Below, one piece after another: positions 2,106-59,058 of a stretch of 64,000 nt of DNA (positions are counted from its first letter, which is position 1; each line of letters begins with the position of its first letter). The notes under the pieces are model-generated. The model was not told where the DNA came from. It made no database searches and saw only the letters and a program-made list of their open reading frames with translations. Source of the DNA: Escherichia phage vB_Eco_F31; sequence record OP870147.1. One strand, 5' to 3'. A program made the translations under genes and the position numbers.

Positions 2106-2930
2106 ATGATGTTTGGCTATTTTTACAACTCGTCGTTCAGGCGATATATCACAATGATGGGCGATTTGTTTTCAAATATCCAAGTTAACCGTCAATTGTC
2201 TACAGGCAATAAATTAATTAGAGTTCCTATTACGTATGCATCTAAAGAGCACTTTATGATGAAACTTAATAAATGGACCTCTATAAACTCACAAGAAGAT
2301 GTGGCTAAAGTCGAAACTATTCTACCACGTATAAATCTCCAAATGGTAGATTTCGTTTATAACCCAACGTTTAAAACTAATATATTGAATAACTCTCTTT
2401 TGAGTAAATCGACTAAGGATATTGTAGACCAATACAACCCATCACCAATTAAAATGATTTTTGAACTGAGCATCTTTACTCGTTATGAAGATGATATGTT
2501 CCAAATCGTTGAGCAAATTATTCCATATTTTCAGCCGCATTTTAATACGACTATGATTGAGCAATATGGGCAGGATATTCCATTTGAAAGGGATATTAAA
2601 GTCGTATGGATGGCAGCAGCAATGGATGAACAAATAGACGGTGATAATTTATCTCGTCGACGTTTAGAGTGGTCATTAACATTTGAAGTAAATGGATGGA
2701 TGTATCCTCCGGTAGGCGCAGCTGAAGGCCTTATTAAAACGACTTATCTTGATTTTCATGCTAATGAACGAGACCTTCAAACAGCCGCCAGCGTTTTTGA
2801 ATCAGTTGATACAGAAATTAAACCGAGAGACGTTGAAGCACAAGATTGGAATGGTGAAGTTGAACAAACTTATACTCATGATATTCCAATCCCGACTCCA
2901 CCAACCCCTCCTGGTCCTAGAAAACAATAA
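2106..2930 (+). CDS. 15: tail sheath stabiliser / tail terminator gp15
   Basis: 274 aa ORF; synteny (14-15-16) and size match T4 gene 15. Confidence 0.8.
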   Translation: MMFGYFYNSSFRRYITMMGDLFSNIQVNRQLSTGNKLIRVPITYASKEHFMMKLNKWTSINSQEDVAKVETILPRINLQMVDFVYNPTFKTNILNNSLLSKSTKDIVDQYNPSPIKMIFELSIFTRYEDDMFQIVEQIIPYFQPHFNTTMIEQYGQDIPFERDIKVVWMAAAMDEQIDGDNLSRRRLEWSLTFEVNGWMYPPVGAAEGLIKTTYLDFHANERDLQTAASVFESVDTEIKPRDVEAQDWNGEVEQTYTHDIPIPTPPTPPGPRKQ

Positions 2931-11688: not shown

Positions 11689-13257
11689 ATGACTACTATC
11701 AAAACTAAAGCTCAGCTCGTAGACAAATGGAAAGAACTGCTGGAAGGTGAAGGCCTGCCGGAAATCGCTAATAGCAAGCAGGCTATTATCGCTAAAATCT
11801 TCGAAAACCAGGAAAAAGATTTCGAAGTATCCCCTGAATATAAAGACGAGAAAATCGCTCAGGCATTTGGTTCTTTCTTGACCGAAGCTGAAATTGGTGG
11901 TGACCATGGTTATAATGCTCAGAACATCGCAGCAGGTCAAACCTCTGGTGCAGTAACCCAAATTGGGCCGGCAGTTATGGGTATGGTTCGTCGTGCTATT
12001 CCTAATCTGATCGCTTTTGATATTTGTGGTGTTCAGCCTATGAACAGCCCTACCGGTCAGGTATTTGCTCTCCGTGCAGTATATGGTAAAGACCCTATCG
12101 CTGCTGGCGCTAAAGAAGCTTTCCATCCGATGTATGCCCCAGACGCGATGTTCTCTGGTCAGGGTGCTGCTAAGAAATTCCCAGCTCTGGCTGCTGACAC
12201 TACTACTGTTGTAGGTGATATCTATACTCACTTCTTCCAAGAAACTGGTACTGTATATCTGCAAGCTTCTGCTGTCGTAACACTTGATTCTAGTGCAACT
12301 GATGCAGCTAAATTAGATGCAGAAGTTAAGAAACAAATGGAAGCTGGTGCACTGGTAGAAATCGCTGAAGGTATGGCTACTTCTATCGCTGAACTCCAGG
12401 AAGGTTTCAACGGTTCTACCGATAACCCATGGAATGAAATGGGCTTCCGTATCGATAAACAAGTTATCGAAGCTAAATCTCGCCAGCTGAAAGCTGCTTA
12501 CTCTATCGAATTAGCACAAGACCTCCGTGCAGTACACGGTATGGATGCTGATGCTGAACTGAGCGGTATTCTGGCTACAGAAATTATGCTAGAAATCAAC
12601 CGTGAAGTTGTTGATTGGATTAACTACTCAGCACAGGTTGGTAAATCCGGTATGACCCTGACTCCGGGTTCTAAAGCTGGTGTATTTGACTTCCAGGACC
12701 CGATTGATATCCGTGGTGCTCGTTGGGCCGGTGAAAGCTTTAAATCTCTGTTGTTCCAGATTGATAAAGAAGCAGTTGAAATTGCTCGTCAAACCGGTCG
12801 TGGTGAAGGTAACTTCATTATCGCTTCCCGTAACGTAGTTAACGTACTGGCTTCAGTTGATACTGGTATTTCTTACGCTGCACAGGGTCTGGCTTCTGGT
12901 TTTAATACCGACACTACTAAGTCTGTATTTGCCGGTGTACTTGGTGGTAAATACCGCGTATACATCGACCAGTATGCTAAACAGGATTACTTCACCGTTG
13001 GTTACAAAGGCGCTAACGAAATGGATGCAGGTATTTACTATGCTCCTTACGTTGCACTTACCCCGCTGCGTGGTTCCGATCCTAAGAACTTCCAGCCGGT
13101 AATGGGCTTTAAAACTCGTTACGGTATCGGTGTTAACCCGTTTGCTGAAAGTTCCCTGCAGGCTCCAGGTGCTCGCATCCAGTCCGGTATGCCATCTATC
13201 CTGAACAGCCTTGGTAAGAACGCTTACTTCCGCCGTGTATATGTAAAAGGCATCTAA
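11689..13257 (+). CDS. 23: major capsid protein gp23
   Basis: 522 aa; sequence very close to T4 gp23 as recalled (MTTIKTK...EGEGLPEIANSKQAIIAKIFENQEKDF ... GKNAYFRRVYVKGI). Confidence 0.97.
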   Translation: MTTIKTKAQLVDKWKELLEGEGLPEIANSKQAIIAKIFENQEKDFEVSPEYKDEKIAQAFGSFLTEAEIGGDHGYNAQNIAAGQTSGAVTQIGPAVMGMVRRAIPNLIAFDICGVQPMNSPTGQVFALRAVYGKDPIAAGAKEAFHPMYAPDAMFSGQGAAKKFPALAADTTTVVGDIYTHFFQETGTVYLQASAVVTLDSSATDAAKLDAEVKKQMEAGALVEIAEGMATSIAELQEGFNGSTDNPWNEMGFRIDKQVIEAKSRQLKAAYSIELAQDLRAVHGMDADAELSGILATEIMLEINREVVDWINYSAQVGKSGMTLTPGSKAGVFDFQDPIDIRGARWAGESFKSLLFQIDKEAVEIARQTGRGEGNFIIASRNVVNVLASVDTGISYAAQGLASGFNTDTTKSVFAGVLGGKYRVYIDQYAKQDYFTVGYKGANEMDAGIYYAPYVALTPLRGSDPKNFQPVMGFKTRYGIGVNPFAESSLQAPGARIQSGMPSILNSLGKNAYFRRVYVKGI

Positions 13258-14996: not shown

Positions 14997-15995
14997 TTAT
15001 GATACTAATTCAATCCATGCAGGACGCAGAACATCTTGCACCATTCGGACTAATTCTTTCTTAACAAGATTCGGATTATCAGATGATGTTAATACAATAC
15101 CTTCACGAGAAGTTTCTTCCAGAATATCTTGAACAGTCAATCCCATCACTTTGCCAAAATCTTTTGGCGTTACAGTCCCAATCTTAGAAATCACATTATT
15201 AACACGATTTAATGTAACATAACAAGCTAGAACATCAAGTAAGTTTTTGTCAATTTCGGTTAATGGAACCTGAGTTTTAATAGGCTTATCAGACTTTTTC
15301 TTTTCACTGAATTTAGAGTTCTTGCACTTAATAGCTACACGAGTACCGTTTGGCAGCCATTTAGGGAAACAGGGCTTCAGAACATAACCTTCCGCAGTAT
15401 TATTACCAATAACATTAGCATCAAATACGCAATTATTTGCTTCGACAAGGTCTTCTGACGCAGTAGCATTATAAGCGGCTAAGACAGAATCAAGGTCGTT
15501 TGGAATCATGATAAGAGCATCAAATGTGCCACGACCAAGCATTGGTGCCATTTTAAAACCGAATTCATTACAGAAATCTTGCATTTCATAATCGGTCAAA
15601 TACGTATTATCACCACTTTCTGTATTGATAAGGATATCGAACACATAAAAATCTTTTTCACCGTAGTCAACACCTTTCTGGATTCCACCACCGGCGAATT
15701 CACCGAATACTTGATATGATACGGCTCGAGCTGTGTACATGAATTCCTGAACGGCTTTAATAGCTTTATCATACTTCTTGAGTACGATTTCATAACCATA
15801 AAAATCTTCTGCTGGAAGAATAGGGCCTGTGCGCTTGGCGCATGTGACGTTGTCACGTTCAATTATTAACGAGAAGTTAGTCCCATGGATTTTCTCACGT
15901 GCTACCCAAACACCAGTAGTCAAACCATTAGTGTAGAGTTTTTCAATAAACTTAGAGTTGTAGTGGTTTTCAAGACTGCTGTATTTCTTAAACAT
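14997..15995 (-). CDS. rnlB: RNA ligase 2
   Basis: 332 aa; N-terminus [21 protein letters not shown] and nucleotidyltransferase motif KIHGTN match T4 Rnl2 as recalled. Confidence 0.9.
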
Positions 15996-16083
15996 AAATC
16001 ACCATTATAAATAATATCAAAATAATTAGCAGAGACTCTGTCTCCGACCAGATGTTTAATTTGAATGGATAGAACCTAGATTC

Positions 16084-16109
16084 ATTATACCATCAAAAAA
16101 TGTAAAGCA
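16084..16109 (-). promoter_or_regulatory. middle-promoter-like motif (MotA box TGCTTTA, 13 nt, TATAAT) upstream of rnlB
   Basis: Minus strand aatatGCTTTAcattttttgatggTATAATg. Confidence 0.4.
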
Positions 16110-16111
16110 TA

Positions 16112-16554: not shown

Positions 16555-16635
16555 AATCAATCCCGTATTATTTGGTTTGTGCCATTATATACATCAATCT
16601 CAAGATGTGTTTTGTATGCTTTAAAAACGAAGAAA

Positions 16636-16649
16636 GGGGCCGAAGCCCC
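16636..16649 (-). terminator. terminator hairpin GGGGC-UUCG-GCCCC (minus strand) after hoc
   Basis: GC stem with UUCG loop 7 nt after hoc stop, followed on minus strand by U-rich tract. Confidence 0.5.
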
Positions 16650-16655
16650 TTACGA

Positions 16656-20831: not shown

Positions 20832-21056
20832 TTATACAACTCTCATATGCATATCAATGCCCATATCTTTAGAATAAAAATATTCATCAAGATATCCGGC
20901 AAATTTTCCTTTAATATAAAGGACGTCTTCACCACACGGGTGGTCTGCCAGGATACGAATATCCTGACGACGTAGACGATACTTTTCCATTAAGAATTTA
21001 ATTTCAGTTTCAAATTCTTCGTCATTATTAAAGGCATCTTCAATTGAATAACGCAT
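20832..21056 (-). CDS. hypothetical protein (74 aa), downstream of uvsY
   Basis: ATG at 21056 overlaps uvsY stop; same strand operon position as T4 uvsY.-1. Confidence 0.5.
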   Translation of the reverse strand: MRYSIEDAFNNDEEFETEIKFLMEKYRLRRQDIRILADHPCGEDVLYIKGKFAGYLDEYFYSKDMGIDMHMRVV

Positions 21057-21469
21057 TATTGCCCCGCTTCAAATTCTCGCATATCCTGGATATGTTTAAG
21101 TGCAAAACTACGAGACTTAACTGCGTCAAGTGCACCACTACAGAACTCAAGTAAAATTCCCCAGTATTGTAAAGTAGTCTCTATTTTAAGCACATCTTTA
21201 TCTGCAGCCAGGACAGTTTTCATTTCAGATTTCTCGTATCGGTCCATACTGAATTCATCACCGTCACCTCGTCCCGAGTAGTAGTCTAATCTTGCTTTTA
21301 GAGCAGTTTTCTTCTGAGTCTCTATACGCAACATTTCTTTACGAATAAATGAGTGCTTACGTAGCCATTTGCTGTATAACTTAACATTATTCGCCGTCTC
21401 ATATTGCAACTTTGTCATATCAATAGCTAAGTCTGCGTCTAACTCTTCCTGTAAATCTTCCAGCTTCAT
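21056..21469 (-). CDS. uvsY: recombination mediator UvsY
   Basis: 137 aa, same length as T4 UvsY; MotA-box middle promoter motif upstream. Confidence 0.85.
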   Translation of the reverse strand: MKLEDLQEELDADLAIDMTKLQYETANNVKLYSKWLRKHSFIRKEMLRIETQKKTALKARLDYYSGRGDGDEFSMDRYEKSEMKTVLAADKDVLKIETTLQYWGILLEFCSGALDAVKSRSFALKHIQDMREFEAGQ

Positions 21470-21523
21470 AATATTCTCTCTTTAACTAATAATCTCCCGG
21501 CTGTATCGGAAGGACCTAAAACC

Positions 21524-21548
21524 ATTATACATAGGTTGCCTTGAAGCA
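21524..21548 (-). promoter_or_regulatory. middle-promoter-like motif (MotA box TGCTTCA, 12 nt, TATAAT) upstream of uvsY
   Basis: Minus strand gtaaTGCTTCAaggcaacctatgTATAATgg directly after gene 25 stop. Confidence 0.45.
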
Positions 21549-21947
21549 TTACACTCTATTGCTTGACGCTAACTGAAGTTTAATTTGTTCAATATCGTCA
21601 GGGTTGTCTACGACCGAAAATCTAATCTCTACTATAACCGTATAGTCATCATATACTGGCGTTACACTTACAGAAAGTTTGTCGATGCGTGGCTCATAGT
21701 TACGAACAGCTGCCTGGATATTACGCTCAATCGTATCGGCTGTAAGTGGTGTCATGTTCTCGAAAAGTTCATCGACCAAATCACATCCAAATTCAGGGTC
21801 GAAGGGGCGTGAGCCTTTTCTAGTTGTCACTATGCCAAGAAGACTATTTTTAATAGAACGAAGTCCTACAGAACGAGCAACGTCCTTGTTCCAATCCATA
21901 CGCATTTCTGGGTCGATATCTGAATAAAGTTTATTGATATTAGACAT
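21549..21947 (-). CDS. 25: baseplate wedge protein gp25
   Basis: 132 aa, same length as T4 gp25; directly downstream of gene 26 (ATG overlaps its stop). Confidence 0.85.
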   Translation of the reverse strand: MSNINKLYSDIDPEMRMDWNKDVARSVGLRSIKNSLLGIVTTRKGSRPFDPEFGCDLVDELFENMTPLTADTIERNIQAAVRNYEPRIDKLSVSVTPVYDDYTVIVEIRFSVVDNPDDIEQIKLQLASSNRV

Positions 21948-31588: not shown

Positions 31589-33081
31589 TATAAACCTGTC
31601 TGGGACCACGGTCCAAATACGTCTTCAAACGAATCCGCTTCTGTTTTATCAAAACGGAACCCTTTAATAATTGGAAGGAAAATACCTACAGTTCCTTCAC
31701 GTCCTTTAGAATGAACCCAACCATTGCATTCACAATCAGCGATACGTCCAATTAATTTACCTTCACGAGCTTCGGCCATTAATCGTTCACGGTCCAAATC
31801 ATGACGCTCATCTAAAGGAATAAGAACCTTTACACCATCAACTGTTTTATGAGTTGTATCTTTAAAACCTGAACCACAATCGGTTGTAATACGACGACAA
31901 CGTGATACGAGTTCGACACCACCTAATTTGTTAGGGTCTTTAGAGTGTTCATAGTATCCTACAACTTCTAAAGCGATATCAATAACTTCTTTAAATTTAA
32001 TTAGGTTCTTAGAGCGTTTGTTTTCCCAATATGAATCACGGTTTTTAAGGATAATACCTTCAAGACCTTGGTCAACATATTTTTTATAAACCACTTTAGC
32101 TTCGTCAAGATTACGAACTAACTGATTTTCAATTGGCTCAATTCGTTTAAAGCCTTCAGCCATATTTTCAAGAGCAGCAAAACGAACATCGTATTTCTGA
32201 CCTTTAATTTTGCCATCAGAATAGACTTCATCTAAAGGAACATAGTCCCAGGCTTGAAGAACCATACCTTCAGCTTCTTTAGGAGAAATAGTCCCTTGAA
32301 GAGATTTATTTGCTAAACCGTTTGAAGTGCTACGGTCCGCAACTTGTACTTCTTCGGATTCTTCATTATCACCAAATAAGAACGACAGGTCATTTCCTGA
32401 GCTCACAGCCTTTTTAATATCAAATGAATGGTAAACTAATTCACCGTCGATTAAAACCCCATTAGGGTGTCTTTCACGAGCTTCTTTAGTCATTTCCATT
32501 AGTTCATCTGCTAATAGAGTAAGACCATGATATTCGTTGCCGGCACGAGAAAAGAATTGAACACCATCATAGCGAACTTCAGCGAAACAACGAGCACCAT
32601 CGGCTTTTAATTGAGCAAATGCAGGCCATTTAATATTTTTAGTAATCAATTTCTCATCATATGCAGATGCTAACATCTGTGGTTGCAATTGAATAAGTCC
32701 AGGCCACACCTTATTCGCGATAGACACTGAAGCACCTACTTCAAGGTCGCGCATCATTACACGACGAAGGACTTCTACATCATCAGGTTTACCGTCAGCG
32801 ATATAACCCATGAGCTCTTTAATTGCAGCATTACCAGTGAGTTTACGAGTGGCTAATGTGAACTCAATAAAATCCAACATGTCATCTAATTCAAGAAGAC
32901 CATACGCTTGAGACCTTTCACCTGGTCCTGGCCATTTCTTAATATAATACTGGATACCACGTGCATATGTTAAACGATACACACGTTCAAGTAATTTGTT
33001 GTCCTTATTTTTCTTAAGGATTTCCTGTTTTGTTTTAGTAGAACCGATCGCAGCTATTTGGTTTAAAATATCTAAAATCAT
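31588..33081 (-). CDS. 30: ATP-dependent DNA ligase gp30
   Basis: 497 aa; adenylation motif region (KADGARCF); size and position as T4 DNA ligase. Confidence 0.9.
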   Translation of the reverse strand: MILDILNQIAAIGSTKTKQEILKKNKDNKLLERVYRLTYARGIQYYIKKWPGPGERSQAYGLLELDDMLDFIEFTLATRKLTGNAAIKELMGYIADGKPDDVEVLRRVMMRDLEVGASVSIANKVWPGLIQLQPQMLASAYDEKLITKNIKWPAFAQLKADGARCFAEVRYDGVQFFSRAGNEYHGLTLLADELMEMTKEARERHPNGVLIDGELVYHSFDIKKAVSSGNDLSFLFGDNEESEEVQVADRSTSNGLANKSLQGTISPKEAEGMVLQAWDYVPLDEVYSDGKIKGQKYDVRFAALENMAEGFKRIEPIENQLVRNLDEAKVVYKKYVDQGLEGIILKNRDSYWENKRSKNLIKFKEVIDIALEVVGYYEHSKDPNKLGGVELVSRCRRITTDCGSGFKDTTHKTVDGVKVLIPLDERHDLDRERLMAEAREGKLIGRIADCECNGWVHSKGREGTVGIFLPIIKGFRFDKTEADSFEDVFGPWSQTGL

Positions 33082-37525: not shown

Positions 37526-37858
37526 TCACTTATAAAGACACGGAATAGCTTTATAGTGGCATGTTACGAATTTCTGTTTAATTTCTTTAGGTTGTTTAAG
37601 TCCCAAAGCCACAAATGGATGTGGAACATTTCGAATTTGTCCAACTGGTAGTGGAGTCAAATCACCGACTTCAACAAAACCTTCAGGAACATCAGGACCT
37701 ACAGAATGAACTACACATAGTTCAGGAACTTCACCTTGAACACGTTTACCAATCACAAGTCCTGATTCGGTAACTTCTTCATCACCTGCTTGAGCGGGTT
37801 CAGAAACCAGAATGACATATTCACCAACAGCACGAATTGGGAGTTGTACTTCGGACAT
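37526..37858 (-). CDS. 31: co-chaperonin gp31 (GroES analogue)
   Basis: 110 aa; position between rIII and cd as in T4; MotA-box middle promoter motif upstream. Confidence 0.8.
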
Positions 37859-37888
37859 CTTATTTCCTTGTTGTTTGACGATAGATTA

Positions 37889-37913
37889 ATAATACCATAC
37901 TATTCGTAAAGCA
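37889..37913 (-). promoter_or_regulatory. middle-promoter-like motif (MotA box TGCTTTA, 12 nt, TATTAT) upstream of gene 31
   Basis: Minus strand atatGCTTTAcgaatagtatggTATTATtaa, then AAGGA and ATG of gene 31. Confidence 0.4.
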
Positions 37914-38213: not shown

Positions 38214-38795
38214 TTATTCACCACAAAAGTTTCGGATTTGTTCCCAATTCAGAGAACGAAGATTATTACGAGAGTACTGAATTACTTCAATACCGGCTTG
38301 TTTTAGAATGTCTGCCCAATTTTCAGGAGATCGGTCGTATAATTCTGCATATACAACCTTTTTAATACCTGACTGTGTAATAGCTTTAGTGCAATCAGGA
38401 CACGGAGAAAGCGTCGTATATAACGTAGCACCTTCAATAGAATTACCTTTACGAGCTGCAAATAAAATTGCATTCAGTTCAGCATGGATTTCATTATTAG
38501 CAGACCATGCACTATGAGCGGCCCGATGTTCTTTAGCCAAAACAAAATTATCCACCCGTCCAAATGCTGTAGTGCCTTCTTTATGCCCAGCAACGATGAC
38601 CGGGCTTGGTTTATTCTTCAACCAACCGTTTTCGGATGCATGTTCGCAACAGTTTGTACCACCTGAAGGAGAGCCATTATAACCTGTAGAAATAATGCGT
38701 CCATCTTTTTCAATGACGGCGCCAACTTTCCATGAACAACATTTTGATTCTTGAGAAATCAGATATGCAATCTGAAGGTATGTGCTAGCTTTCAT
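38214..38795 (-). CDS. cd: dCMP deaminase
   Basis: 193 aa, same length as T4 Cd; zinc-binding deaminase motifs (HAE..., SPCPDC). Confidence 0.9.
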   Translation of the reverse strand: MKASTYLQIAYLISQESKCCSWKVGAVIEKDGRIISTGYNGSPSGGTNCCEHASENGWLKNKPSPVIVAGHKEGTTAFGRVDNFVLAKEHRAAHSAWSANNEIHAELNAILFAARKGNSIEGATLYTTLSPCPDCTKAITQSGIKKVVYAELYDRSPENWADILKQAGIEVIQYSRNNLRSLNWEQIRNFCGE

Positions 38796-39787
38796 TATTG
38801 AACCTTATTAATATAAGTTAACAGCTCTTTAGTTTGTTCCCAACTGATGCACGCATCGGTAACGGAAACGCCATAGGACATATTATCAGAAATTTTTTGA
38901 TTTCCTTCATGTAGGAACGATTCTATCATAATTCCTTTGACCAAATCATTAGCTGCTAAATTTTTACCAATACCAATTTGATTGCTATAATGCCCATCAG
39001 CGTTTGCATGGCTACAGTCAACCATTACATAATGATTCAGACCTACTGCCCTTGCTTTGTTAGAAGCTTCTTGAATATCAGAAGAATGATAGTTCGGGCC
39101 GTTGGTCCCGCCACGCAATACGATATGCGTATTCTGATTACCTTCAGCTTCAACAATGCCTACAGTACCATCGACGTCCATACCCATATACCGATGAGGC
39201 CAGGCGGCACTATACATCGCGTCTGTAGCTACTTTAATAGAACCATTGGTTGCGTTCTTGAAGCCTACGCACATCGGTAGACCTGAAGCAATTTCACGAT
39301 GTGTCTGACTTTCAGTCGTACGGGCACCAATAGCAACCCATGAGAAAATACCAGAAAGATACTTAATCGTGAATGGGTCTAATACTTCAGTTGCTAATGG
39401 AAGTCCCATACGTAGAAGTTTACGACACAATGTTCGTGCAACTATAAGACCGTGGTTCATATCAAAACTTCCGTCAAGATATGGATCATTTACAAGACCT
39501 TTCCAACCTACGGTAGTTCGAGGCTTTTCAAAATAAACGCGCATCACTAACAGAACATTAGGAAGACGAGTTTGAAGTTCAGCCAGACGTTTGCCGTATT
39601 CAACAGCAGCAATAGGGTCATGAATTGAACAAGGACCTACAACAATAAGTTTGCGTGGGTCTTCACCGTTCATAATCGAATTAACTTGTTCGCGATGAGA
39701 AGCCACTTGTGATGCGTAAGCTTCCGACAAAGGAATAATCTCGGCCAGTTCTTTTGGAGAAATAAGTTTTCCGACGACAGGTAACAT
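38795..39787 (-). CDS. 3-deoxy-D-arabino-heptulosonate-7-phosphate (DAHP) synthase, class I (AroG/AroF/AroH family)
   Basis: 330 aa; VGPCSIHD, VYFEKPRTTVGWKGL, GARTTESQ, DCSHAN, ESFLHEGNQ, SVTDACISWE align with E. coli AroG catalytic/metal-binding motifs; AAGGA RBS before ATG at 39787. Confidence 0.9.
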   Translation of the reverse strand: MLPVVGKLISPKELAEIIPLSEAYASQVASHREQVNSIMNGEDPRKLIVVGPCSIHDPIAAVEYGKRLAELQTRLPNVLLVMRVYFEKPRTTVGWKGLVNDPYLDGSFDMNHGLIVARTLCRKLLRMGLPLATEVLDPFTIKYLSGIFSWVAIGARTTESQTHREIASGLPMCVGFKNATNGSIKVATDAMYSAAWPHRYMGMDVDGTVGIVEAEGNQNTHIVLRGGTNGPNYHSSDIQEASNKARAVGLNHYVMVDCSHANADGHYSNQIGIGKNLAANDLVKGIMIESFLHEGNQKISDNMSYGVSVTDACISWEQTKELLTYINKVQ

Positions 39788-40885: not shown

Positions 40886-41971
<1,086 letters not shown>

Positions 41972-46533: not shown

Positions 46534-46587
46534 TATATTTCTCACTTAGTTATTAACTCATCCATGAGTAAATTATAATAAAAAGTC

Positions 46588-48843
46588 TTAAAGCTTACAA
46601 GCAGAACAATCTTCTGCTTTAGGTGTTTCTAATTCATAGTCGTCTGTACCAGACCCATCACGAGTGTTATGATAGTAGAGGTTTTTTCCGCCAAAGTACC
46701 AGAAGTAAAGCAGATCGTCAAGCATTACTGACATTGGCACTTTACCTTTCTCAAATACTGCAGGGTCATAGTAAGTATTAGCAGAAGCAGATTGGCACAC
46801 CCATTTCAACATGATAGCAACTTGGGTCAAATAAGGTTTATTACCTTTCTTAGCAAGTTTCCACGCGTAATCGTAAAGACTCATGTTATGTTCGATATTA
46901 GGAACAACCTGTCGGAAGTTGCCTTCTTTAGATTCTTTAATACTTACTGGACCACGTGGTGGCTCAATCCCGTTTGTAGAGTTTGATACTTGACTGCTTG
47001 ACTCACAAGGCATGAGTGCAGACAACGTTGAGTTACGAATTCCATGTTCTTTGAGTTCAGCTCGAAGTTCTTCCCAGTCACAGACGTAGTTCGGGGCTGC
47101 GATTTGGTCAATCTTTTTATTGTACCAGTCGATAGGTAATTCGCCTCTAGACCATTTAGTGTCTGAATAATACTCGCAACATCCTTTTTCTTTGGCGAGT
47201 TTGATTGATGCTTTGATAAGGCCATATTGTAATCTCTCAAACAATTCATGAGTCAAATCGTTAGCGTCTTCATATGAAGCAAAGTTAGAAGCTAACCATG
47301 CAGCATAGTTCGTAACACCAACACCAAGATTACGACGCTTTTTAGCTTTTAAAGCTTCTGGAACCGGATAATCTTGATAGTCTAACAGGTTATCAAGTGC
47401 ACGTACTTGTACTTCAGCAAGTTCATTAATTTTATCTTGGTCTTGCCAATCAAATTTATCTAATACAAAAGCAGATAATGTGCATAAACCAATTTCAGCA
47501 TCAGGACCATTCACATCATTAGTTGGAATAGCGATTTCACAACATAAGTTACTCTGACGAATTGGAGCTTTTTCACGAATAAACGGAGTGTAGTTATTCG
47601 TGTTATCAACAAACTGTGGATAAATTCGAGCAGTACCAGAGCGTTCAGTCATGAACAATTCAAAGAGTTCTAGTGCTTTGATTCTTTTCTTTCTGATTGT
47701 TGGGTCTTTTTCAGCTTTCTCATAAAGCTCACGGAATTTATCTTGATCTTCAAAGAACGAGTAGTATAGTTCGCCTGACATTTCGTGAGGGCTAAATAAA
47801 GTAATATAATCATTTTTACCAAGGCGTTCCATCATAAGGTCATTAATCTGAATTCCGTAGTCCATATGCCGAATACGGTTTTCATCCACGCCTTTGTTAT
47901 TTTTCAGAACTAATAGGTTCTCTACTTCTAAGTGCCACATCGGATAATACGCTGTAGCAGCACCACCACGAATACCACCTTGAGAACAAGATTTTACTGC
48001 AGTTTGGAAATGTTTCCAGAATGGAATAACGCCCGTATGTCGAACTTCACCCATACCGATCTTAGAACCTTCTGCACGAAGCATACCAACGTTGATACCA
48101 ATACCAGCTCGTTTAGAAATATATTCAATAATTGATGCTGAAGTTTTGTTAATAGATTTTAACGAATCACCGGCTTCAATAACTACACAACTAGAGAACT
48201 GGCGAGTTGGAGTACGAGCACCTGCCATAATTGGGGTTGGCAATGAAACTTGATGAGTAGAAACGGCATCATAAAAACGAATAATATGTTTCAAACGGTC
48301 ATGAGTTTCGTCTTGATGCAATGCCATGCCAATAGCCATGATAGCAAACTGTGGAGTTTCATAAATCTTCCCAGTTGTTTTATCTTTAACTAGATATTTT
48401 TCTTTAAGCTGCATAGCACCAGCATAAGTCAGGTCAAAGTCTCGTTCATGTTTAATCTGTGAATCGAGATAAATGATTTCTTCTGCTGAATATTGAGACA
48501 ACATCTCAGGGTCATATTTGCCTTCATTAACACAATAAGAAATATGGTCGATAAAAGCAGGCGGTTCAAACTGCCCATATACATCTTTACGAAGTGCAAA
48601 CATTAGCCCTTTGGCGGCGACATACTGATAATCAGGTTCTTCGACAGAAATCGAGTTAGCTGCAACTTTAATACAAATCTTCTGGATATCTTTGGTGCTC
48701 ATCCCGTCGACAAGATGGGTCTTAATTTCTTCGTACAATTCATATGGGTCGATTTGTGTTCCTTCACATTGCCAGGTCAGAACTTGGATAATTTTCTGTG
48801 CATCAAAATTTTGGGATACGCCACTGCTCTTAGTTACTTGCAT
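46588..48843 (-). CDS. nrdA: ribonucleotide reductase large subunit
   Basis: 751 aa; ATP-cone N-terminus and class I RNR catalytic regions; size as T4 NrdA. Confidence 0.95.
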   Translation of the reverse strand: MQVTKSSGVSQNFDAQKIIQVLTWQCEGTQIDPYELYEEIKTHLVDGMSTKDIQKICIKVAANSISVEEPDYQYVAAKGLMFALRKDVYGQFEPPAFIDHISYCVNEGKYDPEMLSQYSAEEIIYLDSQIKHERDFDLTYAGAMQLKEKYLVKDKTTGKIYETPQFAIMAIGMALHQDETHDRLKHIIRFYDAVSTHQVSLPTPIMAGARTPTRQFSSCVVIEAGDSLKSINKTSASIIEYISKRAGIGINVGMLRAEGSKIGMGEVRHTGVIPFWKHFQTAVKSCSQGGIRGGAATAYYPMWHLEVENLLVLKNNKGVDENRIRHMDYGIQINDLMMERLGKNDYITLFSPHEMSGELYYSFFEDQDKFRELYEKAEKDPTIRKKRIKALELFELFMTERSGTARIYPQFVDNTNNYTPFIREKAPIRQSNLCCEIAIPTNDVNGPDAEIGLCTLSAFVLDKFDWQDQDKINELAEVQVRALDNLLDYQDYPVPEALKAKKRRNLGVGVTNYAAWLASNFASYEDANDLTHELFERLQYGLIKASIKLAKEKGCCEYYSDTKWSRGELPIDWYNKKIDQIAAPNYVCDWEELRAELKEHGIRNSTLSALMPCESSSQVSNSTNGIEPPRGPVSIKESKEGNFRQVVPNIEHNMSLYDYAWKLAKKGNKPYLTQVAIMLKWVCQSASANTYYDPAVFEKGKVPMSVMLDDLLYFWYFGGKNLYYHNTRDGSGTDDYELETPKAEDCSACKL

Positions 48844-50255: not shown

Positions 50256-50839
50256 TTATAAACGCTCTCAGTAATTTCGGTGAGTTCATCGATTCTGTAG
50301 TAATGAGATTCTACCATAGAACGTTGAAGCATAATATCTTGGATGAAATCTTTATCAAGTTGAACGTCTGAATTAACACGACATTTCTTAATGATTTTAG
50401 TCATCACGATTTCATCGGCATAAGGCAGTGCTTGTTTTAATAAAGCGGGGCCACCAATAACAGATACATCAACATGTTCAGTAGAAAGTTTAAACGGTAC
50501 ATCAGTTGCAGGGCTAAACAGGTTAATTTCATCACCTGTTACCAAGGTAATAAATTCAGATTGGGTGATATAGAACCGTGCAAGTTCATCAGTTTTAGTC
50601 CTAGGCAGTTTTCTGGCCATATCAGTGACAACCACATGAGTACGATCTGGGAGTAGACGAGGTAATGATGCAAATGTATTAGCACCCATAACCATTACAG
50701 TGTTTTTAGTGCGAGCAACAAAGTTACTCATATCTTGTTTGATATGCTTCCATGGAAGTCCATCACCTAATCCAAAAGCATATTCCAGTTTATCATCAAC
50801 TGTTTTAGATGGTGCGCATGCGAATACTAATTTAAGCAT
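50252..50839 (-). CDS. frd: dihydrofolate reductase
   Basis: 195 aa from ATG at 50839 (MLKLVFACAPSKTVD, cf. T4 Frd MIKLVF...); the 223-aa track ORF adds a 28-aa N-terminal extension overlapping the upstream gene. Confidence 0.85.
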   Translation of the reverse strand: MLKLVFACAPSKTVDDKLEYAFGLGDGLPWKHIKQDMSNFVARTKNTVMVMGANTFASLPRLLPDRTHVVVTDMARKLPRTKTDELARFYITQSEFITLVTGDEINLFSPATDVPFKLSTEHVDVSVIGGPALLKQALPYADEIVMTKIIKKCRVNSDVQLDKDFIQDIMLQRSMVESHYYRIDELTEITESVYK

Positions 50840-52802: not shown

Positions 52803-52918
52803 TATATTTACCTTTATTTAGATTATTTAATTTATTTACAGTTGGTTGCTACGACACTTATACCTCGTAGCTGGTATGATTTATTTATAAAGTAATTTTA
52901 ACACACAAGAAATAAAGC

Positions 52919-53572
52919 TTAATACTTACATGATTTGATTGTTTCTATGAACAATTTCTTAGCAGCATTTCCATCGATTTGAAGTATTTTTCGATATGCC
53001 TTTAATTTGGTAGAATAATTTTGCCAGACTAAATTGTCGGTAAGTTCGTCATGCTTATCTATAATATTCAAGAATGAATCTAACAACAAGAAGGTTTCAA
53101 ATGAAATTATATTGCTTTGTAGCAATTTAAATATGTAGCTCGACTGAACTTTATTATTATAATCAAATATCTCTTGAAGCGCACTAACTTCCACTTTCTT
53201 ACTGAAATAGTAGATGTTACGTACGTCTTCAGCAAACGTCTCCTTGGCTTGTTTGAGACGTCCAATATATTCCCTATAGAAAACTAATGCATCAGCGTCT
53301 GATATCTCACCGATCCATGCGTCTTGGTTAGCAACTAAGTTGCTTATGAATATCAAGGTGAGTTCCTTCAATTTATATTTCTCTGCTAGTTTTTCAAAGA
53401 AATATTTATCTCGGCGTTTTTGATACGCATTATCCGAAACACGCATGCACCAGTTATATTTGATTACGTCATACCGACCATTAAAATGTTGTTTGCACAT
53501 CAAGTATAGTTTGTATACCGATTTTCCGTTAATATAACGTTCTCCATCAGGAGGCATGCGTATTTTAATCAT
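52919..53572 (-). CDS. 59: helicase loader gp59
   Basis: 217 aa, same as T4 gp59; position upstream of gene 32. Confidence 0.85.
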   Translation of the reverse strand: MIKIRMPPDGERYINGKSVYKLYLMCKQHFNGRYDVIKYNWCMRVSDNAYQKRRDKYFFEKLAEKYKLKELTLIFISNLVANQDAWIGEISDADALVFYREYIGRLKQAKETFAEDVRNIYYFSKKVEVSALQEIFDYNNKVQSSYIFKLLQSNIISFETFLLLDSFLNIIDKHDELTDNLVWQNYSTKLKAYRKILQIDGNAAKKLFIETIKSCKY

Positions 53573-54161: not shown

Positions 54162-55079
54162 TCAGAATTCATTAATTACACTTGTTAATTTAGAAAGACC
54201 AGATTTTACAAAGTATGAATAAATCTTGCCTTTAGGTTGTGGTTTATATGAGTTATAATACTCTATAATGGTTGAAGCAATATTATCAGGGATATAATCA
54301 AAATCAATGAGAACCAAATTTTCTTGATACCGTTTATATTCTTCTGCACTTAATAATACTTCAGCTTGAGAACGATCGTTGGCAATTGCTTCAATAATCG
54401 TTGTTTTCATGCTCGGAGTTCGTTCACCATCAACTCTGGTAAACCAGAAGTCACCACGAACTCGAACCGATGCAACGCCGTCTTTACGGTCACCTTTAAG
54501 AATTTTAGTCATGCAATCAATTTCAGCAGAACCGTTCTTAATTTTAACCCATTTTTTCTGTGGTGGCGACCACTGTTTAACGTTAGGATATTTGTGTAAT
54601 TGTGTAAAGTCACCATCTGATGCAACAATACATACTTTATGTCCGGCTAATGACAAATATTTAGTTAATACACCGATATGGTCATCCGCTTCATACTTGT
54701 CAATATCCATTACAACGTATGGCATGTATTTCTTAATCTCATCAACAACTTGATGGAGTGCAGTAAAATATCCTTCCCAATCCCACTTTGAAGCTTCACG
54801 ATCGGTTTTACGATTTTTCTTGTAATAGTAAGCAAAGTCACGACGCCAATAACCCGAAGTAGCATTATCCATACACAATACAAATTTTGTATAGCCTTGC
54901 TTACGGAACATCACTACGTTTTTACGAATTGAATTCAAGATTACATGGCGAACCATCGGAACGGTAATTTTATCGCCGTCTTCAAAGTTGTTTAATGCGG
55001 CTGCCAATGCAATGTTACTAAAGTCAGCAAGTGCAATACCTTCTTTGTAATCTTCATCCAACATCATTTCTAAATCCAT
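54162..55079 (-). CDS. rnh: RNase H (5'-3' exonuclease / flap endonuclease)
   Basis: 305 aa, same as T4 RNase H; early-promoter motif upstream. Confidence 0.85.
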   Translation of the reverse strand: MDLEMMLDEDYKEGIALADFSNIALAAALNNFEDGDKITVPMVRHVILNSIRKNVVMFRKQGYTKFVLCMDNATSGYWRRDFAYYYKKNRKTDREASKWDWEGYFTALHQVVDEIKKYMPYVVMDIDKYEADDHIGVLTKYLSLAGHKVCIVASDGDFTQLHKYPNVKQWSPPQKKWVKIKNGSAEIDCMTKILKGDRKDGVASVRVRGDFWFTRVDGERTPSMKTTIIEAIANDRSQAEVLLSAEEYKRYQENLVLIDFDYIPDNIASTIIEYYNSYKPQPKGKIYSYFVKSGLSKLTSVINEF

Positions 55080-55111: not shown

Positions 55112-55141
55112 ATAGTAACACACTCATTTGAAAGCGTAAAC
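55112..55141 (-). promoter_or_regulatory. early-promoter-like motif GTTTAC-N18-TACTAT upstream of rnh
   Basis: Minus strand GTTTAC ... TGTTACTATAGAC; back to back with plus-strand late promoter of gene 34. Confidence 0.45.
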
Positions 55142-55182: not shown

Positions 55183-58100
55183 ATGGCCGACATCAAACGT
55201 AAGTTCAGAGCCGAAGACGGTCTGGACGCCGGTGGCGACAAGATTGTTAACGTAGCATTAGCCGACCGTACAGTAGGTACTGATGGCGTAAACGTTGACT
55301 TCCTGGTACAAGAAAACACCGTTCAAGTATATGATTCTACGCGTGGATATAACAAAGGATTTGTTGTTCTTTATGACAACCGTTTATATCAAGCAATAAA
55401 TGATATCGTGTCTCCTTCCGGGGCATTTAACCTTTTACAATGGCGTGCAGTTCGTACTGATGCACAATGGATAACTGTCGCTTCTGGGACTTATCAACTT
55501 TCTTCAGGTGAATCTATTTCGGTTAACACTGGTGCCGGCAATGATATGGTTTTCACGTTGCCAAATACGCCGGTTGATGGTGATACTGTTGTTTTGGCTG
55601 ATATTGGTGGAAGAACCGGGACAGTTAAAGTACAGATTAACGCGTCTGTGCAGAGTATTTTAAACTTTAGAGGTGAACAAGTTCGTACAGTTTTAATGAC
55701 GCGCCCACGTTCACAACTATTGTTTGTGTTTAGTAATCGTTTGTGGCAGATGTATATTACCGATTATGGTAAAGAATCAATCACTGTTACACCTGCGTCA
55801 CCATATCAAGCACAAGCAAATGATTTTATCGTTCGTCGTTTTACTAGTGCAGCACCAATCAACATTACACTTCCACGTAATGCTAACAACGGTGATATAA
55901 TCCACCTAGTTGATTTAGATAAATTAAACCCACTGTATCATACAATTGTTAAAACATTTGATGATACAACGTCTATTGGTGAAGTCGGGACTCATATTGC
56001 CGAAGGCAGAAATGACTCTGACGCGTTTTTTGTTTTTGATGCTGCAAGTAGTTTATGGCGTATATGGGAAGGCGACCAGAAATCGCGTCTTCGTATTATC
56101 CGTGCGGATTCAAATATTCGTCCAAATGAAGAAGTTCTTATTTTTGGCACAAATAACGCTACAGCCGGAACTATTAATCTTACGCTGCCCACCGGAATTT
56201 TGAGTGGTGACACTGTTAAAATTTCAATGAACTACATGCGTAAAGGCCAAACAGTAAAAATTAAAGCTGCCGAAGGTGATACAATTGCTTCTTCTGTTGC
56301 ATTGCTTCAGTTCCCTAAACGTTCTGAATATCCACCTGATGCTCAATGGGTCTCTGTTACTGAACTAGAATTCAATGGCACTACTTCATATGTTCCTGTA
56401 TTAGAATTAGCGTATATCGAAGACACTGATTCTGACACTCACTATTGGGTTGTGCAACAGAATGTCCCTACAGTAGAACGTGTTGATGCCGGAACTGATG
56501 CTACACGAGCTCGTTTAGGTGTTATTGCTCTTGCTACTCAAGCGCAAGCAAATGCTGATTTAGAGAATACTCCAGCTAAAGAAGTGGCTATTACTCCTGA
56601 AACGTTGGCAAATCGTACAGCAACTGAAGCTCGACGTGGTATCGCTAAAATTGCTACAACAGCACAAGTTAACCAGAATTCCACTGCAGCATTTGTGGAT
56701 GATACTATTGTTACGCCTAAAAAATTAAATGAGCGTACAGCAACTGAAACTCGTCGTGGTCTTGCTGAAATTGCTACTCAGGCTGAAACTGATGCCGGTC
56801 TTGATGACACAACGATTATTACACCTAAGAAATTGCAGGCACGTCAGGGTTCTGAAACACTATCTGGTATAGTTAAATATGTATCAACTACTTCTGCTAC
56901 ACCTGCCGCGACTCGTGGAGCTGCAGGTACTAACGTTTATAATAAAACCGTAAATAATTTAACTATTTCTCCTAAAGCCCTTGACCAATATAAAGCAACT
57001 TATTCTCAACAAGGTGCAGTAATTTTAGCTGTTGATAGTGAAGTAATTGCCGGCCAATCTCAAGCAGGTTATTCTCACGCTGTAGTAACTCCTGAAACAC
57101 TACATAAGAAAACTTCCACAGATGGACGTATCGGTTTAATTGAAATTGCTACACAAGCAGAAACTAATGCTGGGACTGATTATACACGTGCAGTAACGCC
57201 TAAGACGTTAAATGATAGGAAAGCTACGGAAGGATTATCCGGCATAGCCGAACTTGCTACGCAAGTTGAATTTGATACTGGAACTGATGATACTCGTATC
57301 TCAACTCCACTGAAAATTAAAACTCATTTTGATTCTTCTGACCGTACCAGTGTTAATTCTGATTCCGGACTTATTGAAGAAGGAACCTTGTGGAACCATT
57401 ATACTCTTGATATTTCTAAAGCAAATGAAACACAACGTGGTACACTTCGAGTAGCGACTCAGACAGAATCTAATGCAGGAACTTTAGATGATGTTCTTAT
57501 TACTCCTAAAAAGCTTTTAGGGACTAAGTCAACTGAAACGTCTGAAGGCGTAATTAAGGTTGCTACTCGGGCCGAAACTGTAACAGGAACTTCTGCTAAT
57601 ACTGCTGTATCGCCTAAGAATTTAAAATGGATTGTCCAGAATGAACCAACATGGGCTGCTACTACGGCAATTCGTGGATTCGTTAAAACTTCATCTGGTT
57701 CAATTACATTCGTTGGTGACGATACTCAAGGTAGTACCCAGGATCTGAATCTTTACGAGAAAAATAGTTATGCTATTTCTCCATATGAATTAAACCGTGT
57801 ACTTGCTAACTATTTGCCATTAAAAGCAAAAGCTGCTGACGCAAATTTATTAGATGGCATAGATTCATCTCAGTTCATTCGTAGGGATATTGCACAGACG
57901 GTTAATGGTTCACTAACCTTAACGAAACAAACTAATCTGAGTGCCCCTCTTGTATCATCTAGTACTGCTACATTTGGTGGTTCAGTTTCGGCAAATAGTA
58001 CATTAACTATTTCTAATACTGGAACGGCAACTCGTCTGATTTTTGAGAAAGGACCTCAAACTGGAACTAACCCAGCGCAGACGATGTCTATCAGAGTTTG

Positions 58101-59058
58101 GGGAAATGAATTTGGTGGTGGTTCAGATACAACACGTTCTACTGTATTTGAAGTTGGTGATGAAACGTCTAATCATTTTTATTCTCAACGTAATAAAGAT
58201 GGGAATATAGCGTTTAGCATTAATGGTACTGTGATGCCAATAAACATTAATGCTTCCGGTTTGATGAATGTTAATGGCGTTGCAACATTTGGTCGTTCAG
58301 TTACTGCTAATGGCGAATTCATTAGTAAGTCTGCAAATGCTTTCAGAGCAATTAGTGGTGATTACGGATTCTTTATTCGTAATGACGCTGCTAATACCTA
58401 TTTTATGCTCACTGCATCAGGCGATCAGACCGGCGGATTTAACGGATTACGTCCTTTAGCTATTAATAATGCATCCGGCCAAGTAACGATTGGTGAAGGC
58501 TTAATCATTGCCAAAGGTGCTACTATAAATTCAGGTGGTTTGACTGTTAACTCGAGAATTCGTTCTCAGGGTAATAAAACATCTGATTTATATACCCTTG
58601 CGCCAACATCTGATACTGTAGGATTCTGGTCAATTGATATTAACGATTCAGCCACTTATAACCAGTTCCCAGGTTATTTTAAAATGGTTGAAAAAACTAA
58701 TGAAGTGACTGGGCTTCCATACTTAGAACGTGGCGAAGAAGTTAAATCTCCTGGTACATTGACTCAGTTTGGTAATACACTTGATTCACTTTACCAAGAT
58801 TGGATTACTTATCCAACAACTCCAGAAGCACGTACAACCCGTTGGACACGTACATGGCAGAAAACTAAAAATTCTTGGTCAAGTTTTGTTCAGGTATTTG
58901 ATGGTGGAAACCCTCCTCAACCTTCTGATATTGGTGCTTTACCTTCTGATAATGCAACAATCGGAAACTTGACAATAAGGGATTTCTTAAGGATTGGTAA
59001 TGTCCGCATTATTCCAGACCCTGTGAATAAATCTGTTAAATTCGAGTGGATTGAATAA
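55183..59058 (+). CDS. 34: long tail fibre proximal subunit gp34
   Basis: 1291 aa (T4 gp34 about 1289 aa); repeated T(E/D)xxxG(I/L)AxIATxA motifs; late promoter upstream. Confidence 0.9.
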   Translation: MADIKRKFRAEDGLDAGGDKIVNVALADRTVGTDGVNVDFLVQENTVQVYDSTRGYNKGFVVLYDNRLYQAINDIVSPSGAFNLLQWRAVRTDAQWITVASGTYQLSSGESISVNTGAGNDMVFTLPNTPVDGDTVVLADIGGRTGTVKVQINASVQSILNFRGEQVRTVLMTRPRSQLLFVFSNRLWQMYITDYGKESITVTPASPYQAQANDFIVRRFTSAAPINITLPRNANNGDIIHLVDLDKLNPLYHTIVKTFDDTTSIGEVGTHIAEGRNDSDAFFVFDAASSLWRIWEGDQKSRLRIIRADSNIRPNEEVLIFGTNNATAGTINLTLPTGILSGDTVKISMNYMRKGQTVKIKAAEGDTIASSVALLQFPKRSEYPPDAQWVSVTELEFNGTTSYVPVLELAYIEDTDSDTHYWVVQQNVPTVERVDAGTDATRARLGVIALATQAQANADLENTPAKEVAITPETLANRTATEARRGIAKIATTAQVNQNSTAAFVDDTIVTPKKLNERTATETRRGLAEIATQAETDAGLDDTTIITPKKLQARQGSETLSGIVKYVSTTSATPAATRGAAGTNVYNKTVNNLTISPKALDQYKATYSQQGAVILAVDSEVIAGQSQAGYSHAVVTPETLHKKTSTDGRIGLIEIATQAETNAGTDYTRAVTPKTLNDRKATEGLSGIAELATQVEFDTGTDDTRISTPLKIKTHFDSSDRTSVNSDSGLIEEGTLWNHYTLDISKANETQRGTLRVATQTESNAGTLDDVLITPKKLLGTKSTETSEGVIKVATRAETVTGTSANTAVSPKNLKWIVQNEPTWAATTAIRGFVKTSSGSITFVGDDTQGSTQDLNLYEKNSYAISPYELNRVLANYLPLKAKAADANLLDGIDSSQFIRRDIAQTVNGSLTLTKQTNLSAPLVSSSTATFGGSVSANSTLTISNTGTATRLIFEKGPQTGTNPAQTMSIRVWGNEFGGGSDTTRSTVFEVGDETSNHFYSQRNKDGNIAFSINGTVMPININASGLMNVNGVATFGRSVTANGEFISKSANAFRAISGDYGFFIRNDAANTYFMLTASGDQTGGFNGLRPLAINNASGQVTIGEGLIIAKGATINSGGLTVNSRIRSQGNKTSDLYTLAPTSDTVGFWSIDINDSATYNQFPGYFKMVEKTNEVTGLPYLERGEEVKSPGTLTQFGNTLDSLYQDWITYPTTPEARTTRWTRTWQKTKNSWSSFVQVFDGGNPPQPSDIGALPSDNATIGNLTIRDFLRIGNVRIIPDPVNKSVKFEWIE

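Follow-up and report, generated by a model that had tools for sequence, protein, structure and literature searches.

Probable MotA-dependent middle promoters upstream of uvsY, gene 31 and rnlB in Escherichia phage vB_Eco_F31, an RB69-like T-even phage

The middle promoters of phage T4 combine a MotA box, (a/t)(a/t)(a/t)TGCTTtA, centred at -30, with a sigma-70 -10 element, the box lying 12 ± 1 bp upstream of the latter; about half of them also carry a TGn, and PuvsY, P31 and PrnlB belong to those identified experimentally (Hinton 2010, PMC2988021). For RB69, a motA orthologue and a T4-like middle-promoter consensus have been reported, and the predictions listed for this phage include 112032-112073, 117565-117605 and 133334-133374 (Nolan et al. 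2006, PMC1524935, Additional File 4). According to the RB69 annotation, these three map to the 24.2/rnlB gap, upstream of uvsY and to the 31.1/31 gap, respectively. Some promoters of this class have a second role in T4. The T4 record (AF158101) carries no promoter annotation, its only entries of use here being rep_origin features, which locate oriF at PuvsY and oriG within gene 34; the primer RNA is made from PuvsY and P34i, and a downstream A+T-rich unwinding element is also needed (T4 record and reviews). In vibriophage nt-1, PmSL cassettes have been described on Mot-box promoters (Comeau et al. 2014).

Here we analyse a stretch of 64,000 nt of Escherichia phage vB_Eco_F31 (OP870147.1; A+T content of the genome, 62%), referred to in its entirety as the window. 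An earlier note on this DNA had pointed to three minus-strand sites, at 21524-21548, 37889-37913 and 16084-16109, in which TGCTT(T/C)A is followed after 12-13 nt by TA...T, and had assigned them to uvsY, gene 31 and rnlB. All three are present exactly there, and consist of the following elements.

21542-21548, minus strand: MotA box of PuvsY, TGCTTCA, directly after the TAA of gene 25; the same in T4 PuvsY and in RB69
21524-21529, minus strand: -10 element of PuvsY, TATAAT; start predicted at an A near 21517, by analogy with the T4 start at 115371
21056-21469, minus strand: uvsY, ATG at 21469 (Pfam UvsY PF11056, E=8.5e-48), the gene that PuvsY would serve
37907-37913, minus strand: MotA box of P31, TGCTTTA, after the stop codon of 31.1; TGCTT invariant in six genera
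37889-37894, minus strand: -10 element of P31, TATTAT, with a TGn immediately 5'; start predicted at an A near 37882
37526-37858, minus strand: gene 31, a GroES-like co-chaperonin, ATG at 37858 (Pfam Cpn10 and JK45 annotation), the gene that P31 would serve
16103-16109, minus strand: MotA box of the rnlB promoter, TGCTTTA, after the stop codon of 24.2; top score of the window, 21.9 bits
16084-16089, minus strand: -10 element of the rnlB promoter, TATAAT, with a TGn upstream; start predicted at an A near 16077
14997-15995, minus strand: rnlB, RNA ligase 2, ATG at 15995 (Pfam RNA_ligase and T4_Rnl2_C)

Read on the minus strand, PuvsY runs aaTGCTTCA-aggcaacctatg-TATAAT (21548-21524) and P31 runs taTGCTTTA-cgaatagtatgg-TATTAT (37913-37889), both with a spacer of 12 nt, while the rnlB promoter runs taTGCTTTA-cattttttgatgg-TATAAT (16109-16084) with a spacer of 13 nt; in the last two a further A precedes, giving ataTGCTTTA. 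Each box begins 0-2 nt past the TAA stop of the gene upstream (gene 25, 31.1 and 24.2, respectively) and is therefore non-coding. The start codons of uvsY, gene 31 and rnlB follow 24-82 nt downstream of the sites, the -10 elements being 29-88 nt away from them. The gene upstream of uvsY is gp25 by Pfam, and the identities of the downstream genes agree with the annotation of JK45, a relative with 98% identity. The assignment of the sites to uvsY, gene 31 and rnlB is thus borne out by Pfam and by the relative's annotation. In RB69 (NC_004928), the homologue of window 21056-21549, at 117104-117598, is annotated as a uvsY extended N-terminally across the 25/uvsY intergenic region and its promoter; this extension is probably an annotation artefact, since other records and the Pfam match begin at the ATG equivalent to 21469. 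Elsewhere on the minus strand, a DAHP-synthase-family gene of 330 aa (38795-39787; Pfam PF00793, E=5e-75) adjoins cd; it is annotated in JK45, but RB69 and T4 lack it in the equivalent region.

The strict pattern TGCTTYA-N11-13-TANNNT, sought on both strands and compared with 100 shuffles, occurs at 10 distinct sites of the window (11 matches), every one on the minus strand, where about 2.1 would be expected over both strands; the largest count in a shuffle was 6, and none of the 100 equalled the observed 11. A weight matrix of two blocks plus a term for the spacer, built from the regions 5' of the 58 mapped T4 middle-promoter starts (list of Hinton 2010), gives 21.9 bits to the rnlB site, 21.3 to the gene 31 site and 19.6 to the uvsY site, which rank first, second and fifth among all window positions on both strands; true T4 promoters have a leave-one-out median of 15.75 bits. 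With the cut-off set at 15.5 bits, the minus strand has 14 matches and the plus strand none, with 0.82 expected over both (an enrichment of box-plus-10 of about 17-fold), and at 19 bits or more there are five against 0.037 expected, the top of 300 dinucleotide shuffles being 20.8 bits. Nine of the 14 strong matches lie at most 90 nt upstream of a minus-strand gene start, according to the list of open reading frames and the matrix, and several are equivalent to T4 or RB69 promoters. The motif is short, TANNNT is common and the genome is A+T-rich, and such a degenerate pattern might in principle be matched by accident at the three sites. Given the shuffling results for the strict pattern and for the matrix, the confinement of the matches to one strand and the conservation of their positions in T4 and other genera, we ruled out chance occurrence, whose probability we regard as negligible. 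Codon usage was also rejected as a source of the motif: the late genes on the plus strand, about half of the window, hold no sense-strand match at 15.5 bits or more.

A scan for -35/-10 pairs, demanding at least four of six matches per hexamer, finds no sigma-70 -35 element at any of the three sites. The likeness to the T4 MotA/AsiA layout put forward in the earlier note is therefore upheld by the published consensus, by the T4-derived scores and by the lack of a -35 element. Furthermore, a k-mer test that starts from good -10 hexamers and holds no T4 box information yields, in the minus-strand -30 zone of RB69, the early-promoter GTTTAC together with TGCTT/GCTTT, the latter occurring 34 times there, as against 7 times on the plus strand and 13 times in a displaced control zone; on the window alone the same test gives a weak signal with small counts. 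Scanned against Rfam, the window, leaders included, matched no known RNA family.

The window belongs to an RB69-like T-even phage (Mosigvirus), as judged from sequence. Several Escherichia and Shigella phages match its central 24.5 kb at up to 98.4% identity, and around the promoters identity amounts to 95-99% with RB69 and 68-78% with T4. In a three-way alignment of the window, RB69 and T4, box and -10 show few or no differences, while the spacers have diverged. Conservation extends well beyond these phages. The TGCTT and -10 of the gene 31 promoter are kept in Mosigvirus, Tequatrovirus, Dhakavirus, Gaprivervirus, Kanagawavirus and a Klebsiella phage; the GCTT core and -10 of the uvsY promoter in Mosigvirus, Tequatrovirus, Karamvirus, Moonvirus and Marfavirus, with the -10 and the first ~15 transcribed nt of PuvsY conserved in five genera; and TAATATGCTTTA of the rnlB promoter is invariant in Mosigvirus, Dhakavirus, Kanagawavirus and a Klebsiella phage. 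Functional promoter elements in non-coding DNA should leave just such a pattern, with short conserved blocks set apart by spacers that drift.

These data bear on whether MotA is needed at all. Ordinary sigma-70 promoters were ruled out on the absent -35 element. Extended -10 promoters do not require a -35 element, and two of the sites have the appropriate TGn (TGgTATAAT at rnlB, TGgTATTAT at gene 31), so that they could fire without MotA, the TGCTT box being incidental. However, the uvsY site has no correctly placed TGn, the box is the best-conserved non-coding block across genera (invariant in four of them at rnlB, with TGCTT invariant in six at gene 31), which is unlike incidental sequence, and the paired box and -10 are enriched on the early/middle strand only. 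We thus consider this explanation very unlikely for the three sites, although at rnlB and gene 31 the TGn might permit a degree of transcription independent of MotA.

Neither motA nor asiA is present within the 64-kb window, whose right end falls within gene 37. Its relatives RB69 and JK45 (95-99% identity) encode AsiA (PF09010) and MotA (PF09114 and PF09158) just past genes 37, 38 and t, with motA about 2 kb beyond asiA, and the products exceed the curated Pfam cut-offs for AsiA, MotA_activ and MotCF. Analogy with JK45 supports the placement of asiA about 1.2 kb, and of motA about 3.4 kb, beyond the right end of the window. An RB69-type MotA (at least 90% identity) is found in 154 phage records, and the promoter regions at high identity in a similar number, 150-151. 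The presence of a MotA/AsiA system outside the window, as the earlier note had supposed, is in this manner supported indirectly, at the level of the clade, through RB69, JK45 and the 154 MotA records. Between T4 and RB69, AsiA is 74% and MotA 51% identical. Conservation is good in the N-terminal half of RB69 MotA, which binds sigma, while the DNA-binding C-terminal half (residues about 120-210) has strongly diverged from T4, the MotCF score of RB69-type MotA being only 34.5 bits. A box specificity identical to that of T4 is plausible from the conserved boxes, whose consensus appears unaltered despite this divergence.

The layout, its excess, the strand bias, the lack of a -35 element, the conservation across genera and the motA/asiA genes of relatives can all be read from the sequences. 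We conclude that the three sites are very likely MotA/AsiA-dependent middle promoters of an RB69-like T-even phage, MotA dependence, timing and starts being modelled on T4. By analogy, AsiA would bind and remodel region 4 of the host sigma-70 early in infection, and in the T4 model -35 elements are therefore no longer usable. MotA would then contact the TGCTTyA box near -30 and the far C-terminus of sigma-70, and sigma region 2 would bind the -10 element. Transcription would begin about 7 nt past the -10, at the A near 21517, 37882 and 16077, and uvsY, gene 31 and rnlB would gain middle-time expression independent of read-through from early promoters.

The three sites are part of a set of at least a dozen probable middle promoters, all on the early/middle (minus) strand. 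The remaining strong matches of the window are given below.

57398-57423, minus strand: antisense inside gene 34 (55183-59058, plus strand), 18.8 bits; positional orthologue of T4 P34i, the oriG/ori(34) promoter
52895-52919, minus strand: upstream of gene 32 (P32 equivalent), 20.3 bits; RB69 Pm:147081
54255-54279, minus strand: in the 3' end of rnh, upstream of dsbA (PdsbA equivalent), 20.1 bits; aligns with T4 PdsbA
50308-50331, minus strand: in the 3' end of frd, upstream of td (Ptd equivalent), 17.6 bits; RB69 Pm:144470
46572-46595, minus strand: between nrdA and nrdB (PnrdB equivalent), 16.5 bits; RB69 Pm:140943
55112-55136, minus strand: upstream of rnh, 15.5 bits; RB69 Pm:149298
41168-41192, 31951-31975 and 53156-53181, minus strand: inside pseT, gene 30 and gene 59, respectively, 16.5-17.6 bits
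7187-7212 and 2539-2563, minus strand: antisense inside late genes 18 and 15, 16.6 and 15.8 bits, respectively; identical in RB69

Over 270 nt separate each of the matches inside pseT, gene 30 and gene 59 from the next start codon, and all three are kept in RB69; only that of gene 30 was predicted by Nolan, and none is on the T4 list. The two inside genes 18 and 15 may represent antisense promoters or may have arisen by chance, about 0.8 matches being expected at such a score. Nolan's RB69 list has no prediction at the position equivalent to P34i.

Since PuvsY and P34i are the T4 origin promoters, a further role may be envisaged that adds to, and does not compete with, the middle-promoter reading: PuvsY might also be the promoter of an oriF-type R-loop origin, and the gene 34 site that of an oriG-type one. 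Both lie at positions syntenic with the T4 origin promoters, and the -10 and early leader of PuvsY are those conserved in five genera. Against this, the window sequence from +1 to +80 of PuvsY is 55-61% A+T (14th-41st percentile), as compared with 70-71% (69th-84th percentile) for T4 oriF, by what is a crude measure. The same measure leaves T4 oriG unflagged, as this origin is not A+T-rich near the start, and the test is therefore of little power. An oriF-type unwinding element is not obviously kept, and so origin function should not be carried over from T4 by analogy. Origin function at PuvsY and P34i of the window is possible, on balance rather doubtful, and should not be assumed.

The likeness among some of the promoters reaches into the first 15-25 transcribed nt. 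A leader module, approximately TATAATG(G/A)(A/T)T(C/T)T(A/G)(A/G)GT(C/T)C..TCCATT, is shared by PuvsY and PrnlB of the window and, more loosely, by P34i; other members in T4 and RB69 are the nrdC.7/8 promoter and two plus-strand promoter-like sites. The motif is located as follows.

Window, 21494-21529 and 16030-16089, minus strand: leader motif
T4, 11862-11919 and 75967-76016, plus strand: leader motif
RB69, about 12090-12140 and 79265-79310, plus strand: leader motif

Promoter and leader of the window's PrnlB are 78-80% identical to the two T4 plus-strand sites, which occupy the srd/modA and gene 3/gene 2 gaps, and match T4 PuvsY at 24 of 27 positions. Among strong matrix matches, RRGTYC is found within 16 nt after the -10 in 6 of 45 in RB69 (0.83 expected, p about 2e-4) and in 4 of 47 in T4 (0.69 expected, p about 5e-3), and in both phages the set that bears it includes PuvsY and P34i. 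With 24.1 and 23.2 bits, the two T4 plus-strand sites score higher than all mapped T4 promoters. They are antisense to flanking genes (modA and gene 2), and their syntenic counterparts in RB69 are Nolan's Pm:12081 and Pm:79256. Neither is in the T4 middle-promoter table of Hinton (PMC2988021), and a search of the literature on T4 antisense transcripts and start-site maps gave nothing useful; these sites appear to be undescribed in T4. The full module is found at 22 loci in IMG/VR, all T4-like and in three syntenic contexts only, which argues for a fixed paralogous family and not for a mobile cassette. We tentatively raise, as a speculation with the odds well against it, that such promoters form a MotA-dependent subclass with a second functional element, namely a conserved module at the start of the transcript. 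Since the subclass would include both of the known R-loop origin promoters of T4, the module might mark R-loop-priming transcripts; alternatively, its role as a leader might be regulatory or stabilising. Small G+C-containing hairpins with T-rich tails, flagged as terminator-like, are found in the uvsY leader (21494-21512, minus strand) and in the rnlB leader (16030-16046, minus strand), and could act as attenuators or 5' stabilisers.

The rnlB promoter has a history of its own, which centres on the following region.

15996-16111, minus strand: 24.2/rnlB intergenic region, 116 nt, containing promoter, leader and a small hairpin (16046-16030); missing from T4 and other Tequatrovirus

In T4, the stop of 24.2 and the start of rnlB are 9 nt apart. 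T4 PrnlB (start 109763) is, like the site in the window, a middle promoter serving rnlB; however, it lies inside gene 24.2 with a poor box, AGGTAAA (7.1 bits, leave-one-out), whereas that of the window is intergenic and scores 21.9 bits. From the alignments, the rnlB promoter of the window is not orthologous to T4 PrnlB, because Tequatrovirus has apparently lost the intergenic region: genomes of this genus align to the rnlB coding part only, and four other lineages align across the region. In T4-type genomes 24.2 directly adjoins rnlB, which is served by a weak promoter inside the upstream gene. The region is present or absent depending on the genus, and in all contigs found the copies keep to the same few syntenic loci. 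Two scenarios may be considered. The absence of the entire 116 nt from T4, together with the identity of promoter and leader to promoter-like sites elsewhere in that genome, would fit a PeSL/PmSL-type mobile cassette recently inserted between 24.2 and rnlB. Nevertheless, the same intergenic promoter occurs in Mosigvirus, Dhakavirus, Kanagawavirus and the Klebsiella phage and is therefore probably ancestral, the module is restricted in IMG/VR to its three fixed syntenic contexts, and the hairpin is 3' of the promoter, whereas PeSL hairpins sit upstream. Recent insertion, which we judge unlikely, was thus set aside in favour of loss in Tequatrovirus, and an ancestral intergenic promoter, probably deleted in the T4 lineage, is the simplest reading of the sequences. 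Another hairpin is found in the nearby hoc/24.3 gap (16634-16651, minus strand), where the strong terminator-like AAGGGGCTTCGGCCCCTT is followed by a T-rich tail.

Taken as a matter of regulatory annotation, the analysis would place the phage on a T4-type sigma-appropriation programme, with uvsY, gene 31, rnlB and about ten other genes of the window under probable middle-mode control. At rnlB, T4 would be the outlier, through loss of an ancestral intergenic promoter. The leader motif and the two antisense-oriented promoter-like sites could be tested against existing T4 transcript data.

In comparison with described systems, the three sites are already known: they have been published as RB69 predictions, and two are orthologous to mapped T4 promoters, so that no new biology is involved. 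A matrix scan of RB69 indicates that Pm:117605, Pm:133374 and Pm:112073 serve the same genes and are letter-identical to the three sites of the window; they differ in the isolate alone, and are likewise sequence predictions. By position and sequence, the uvsY and gene 31 sites are orthologues of T4 PuvsY and P31. T4 P31 (start 131540) shares with its counterpart the 31.1/31 position, the box TGCTTTA, the 12-nt spacing and TATTATTAAT, the only difference being about 5 of the 12 spacer positions. T4 PuvsY (start 115371) likewise follows directly on the gene 25 stop, the box TAATGCTTCA and GTATAATG are identical in both, and its first ~15 transcribed nt are related to those of the window. In contrast, the spacer has 13 nt in T4 and 12 nt in the window, with a different sequence, and the leader of the window is more G+C-rich and may form a small hairpin at 21512-21494, to which the T4 uvsY leader has no equivalent. 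Finally, the PmSL of vibriophage nt-1 shares with the window a Mot-box promoter with a stem-loop, short intergenic modules and paralogous copies; in the window, however, the hairpins are downstream of the promoter, and the copies, which show no sign of being mobile, keep to fixed syntenic loci.
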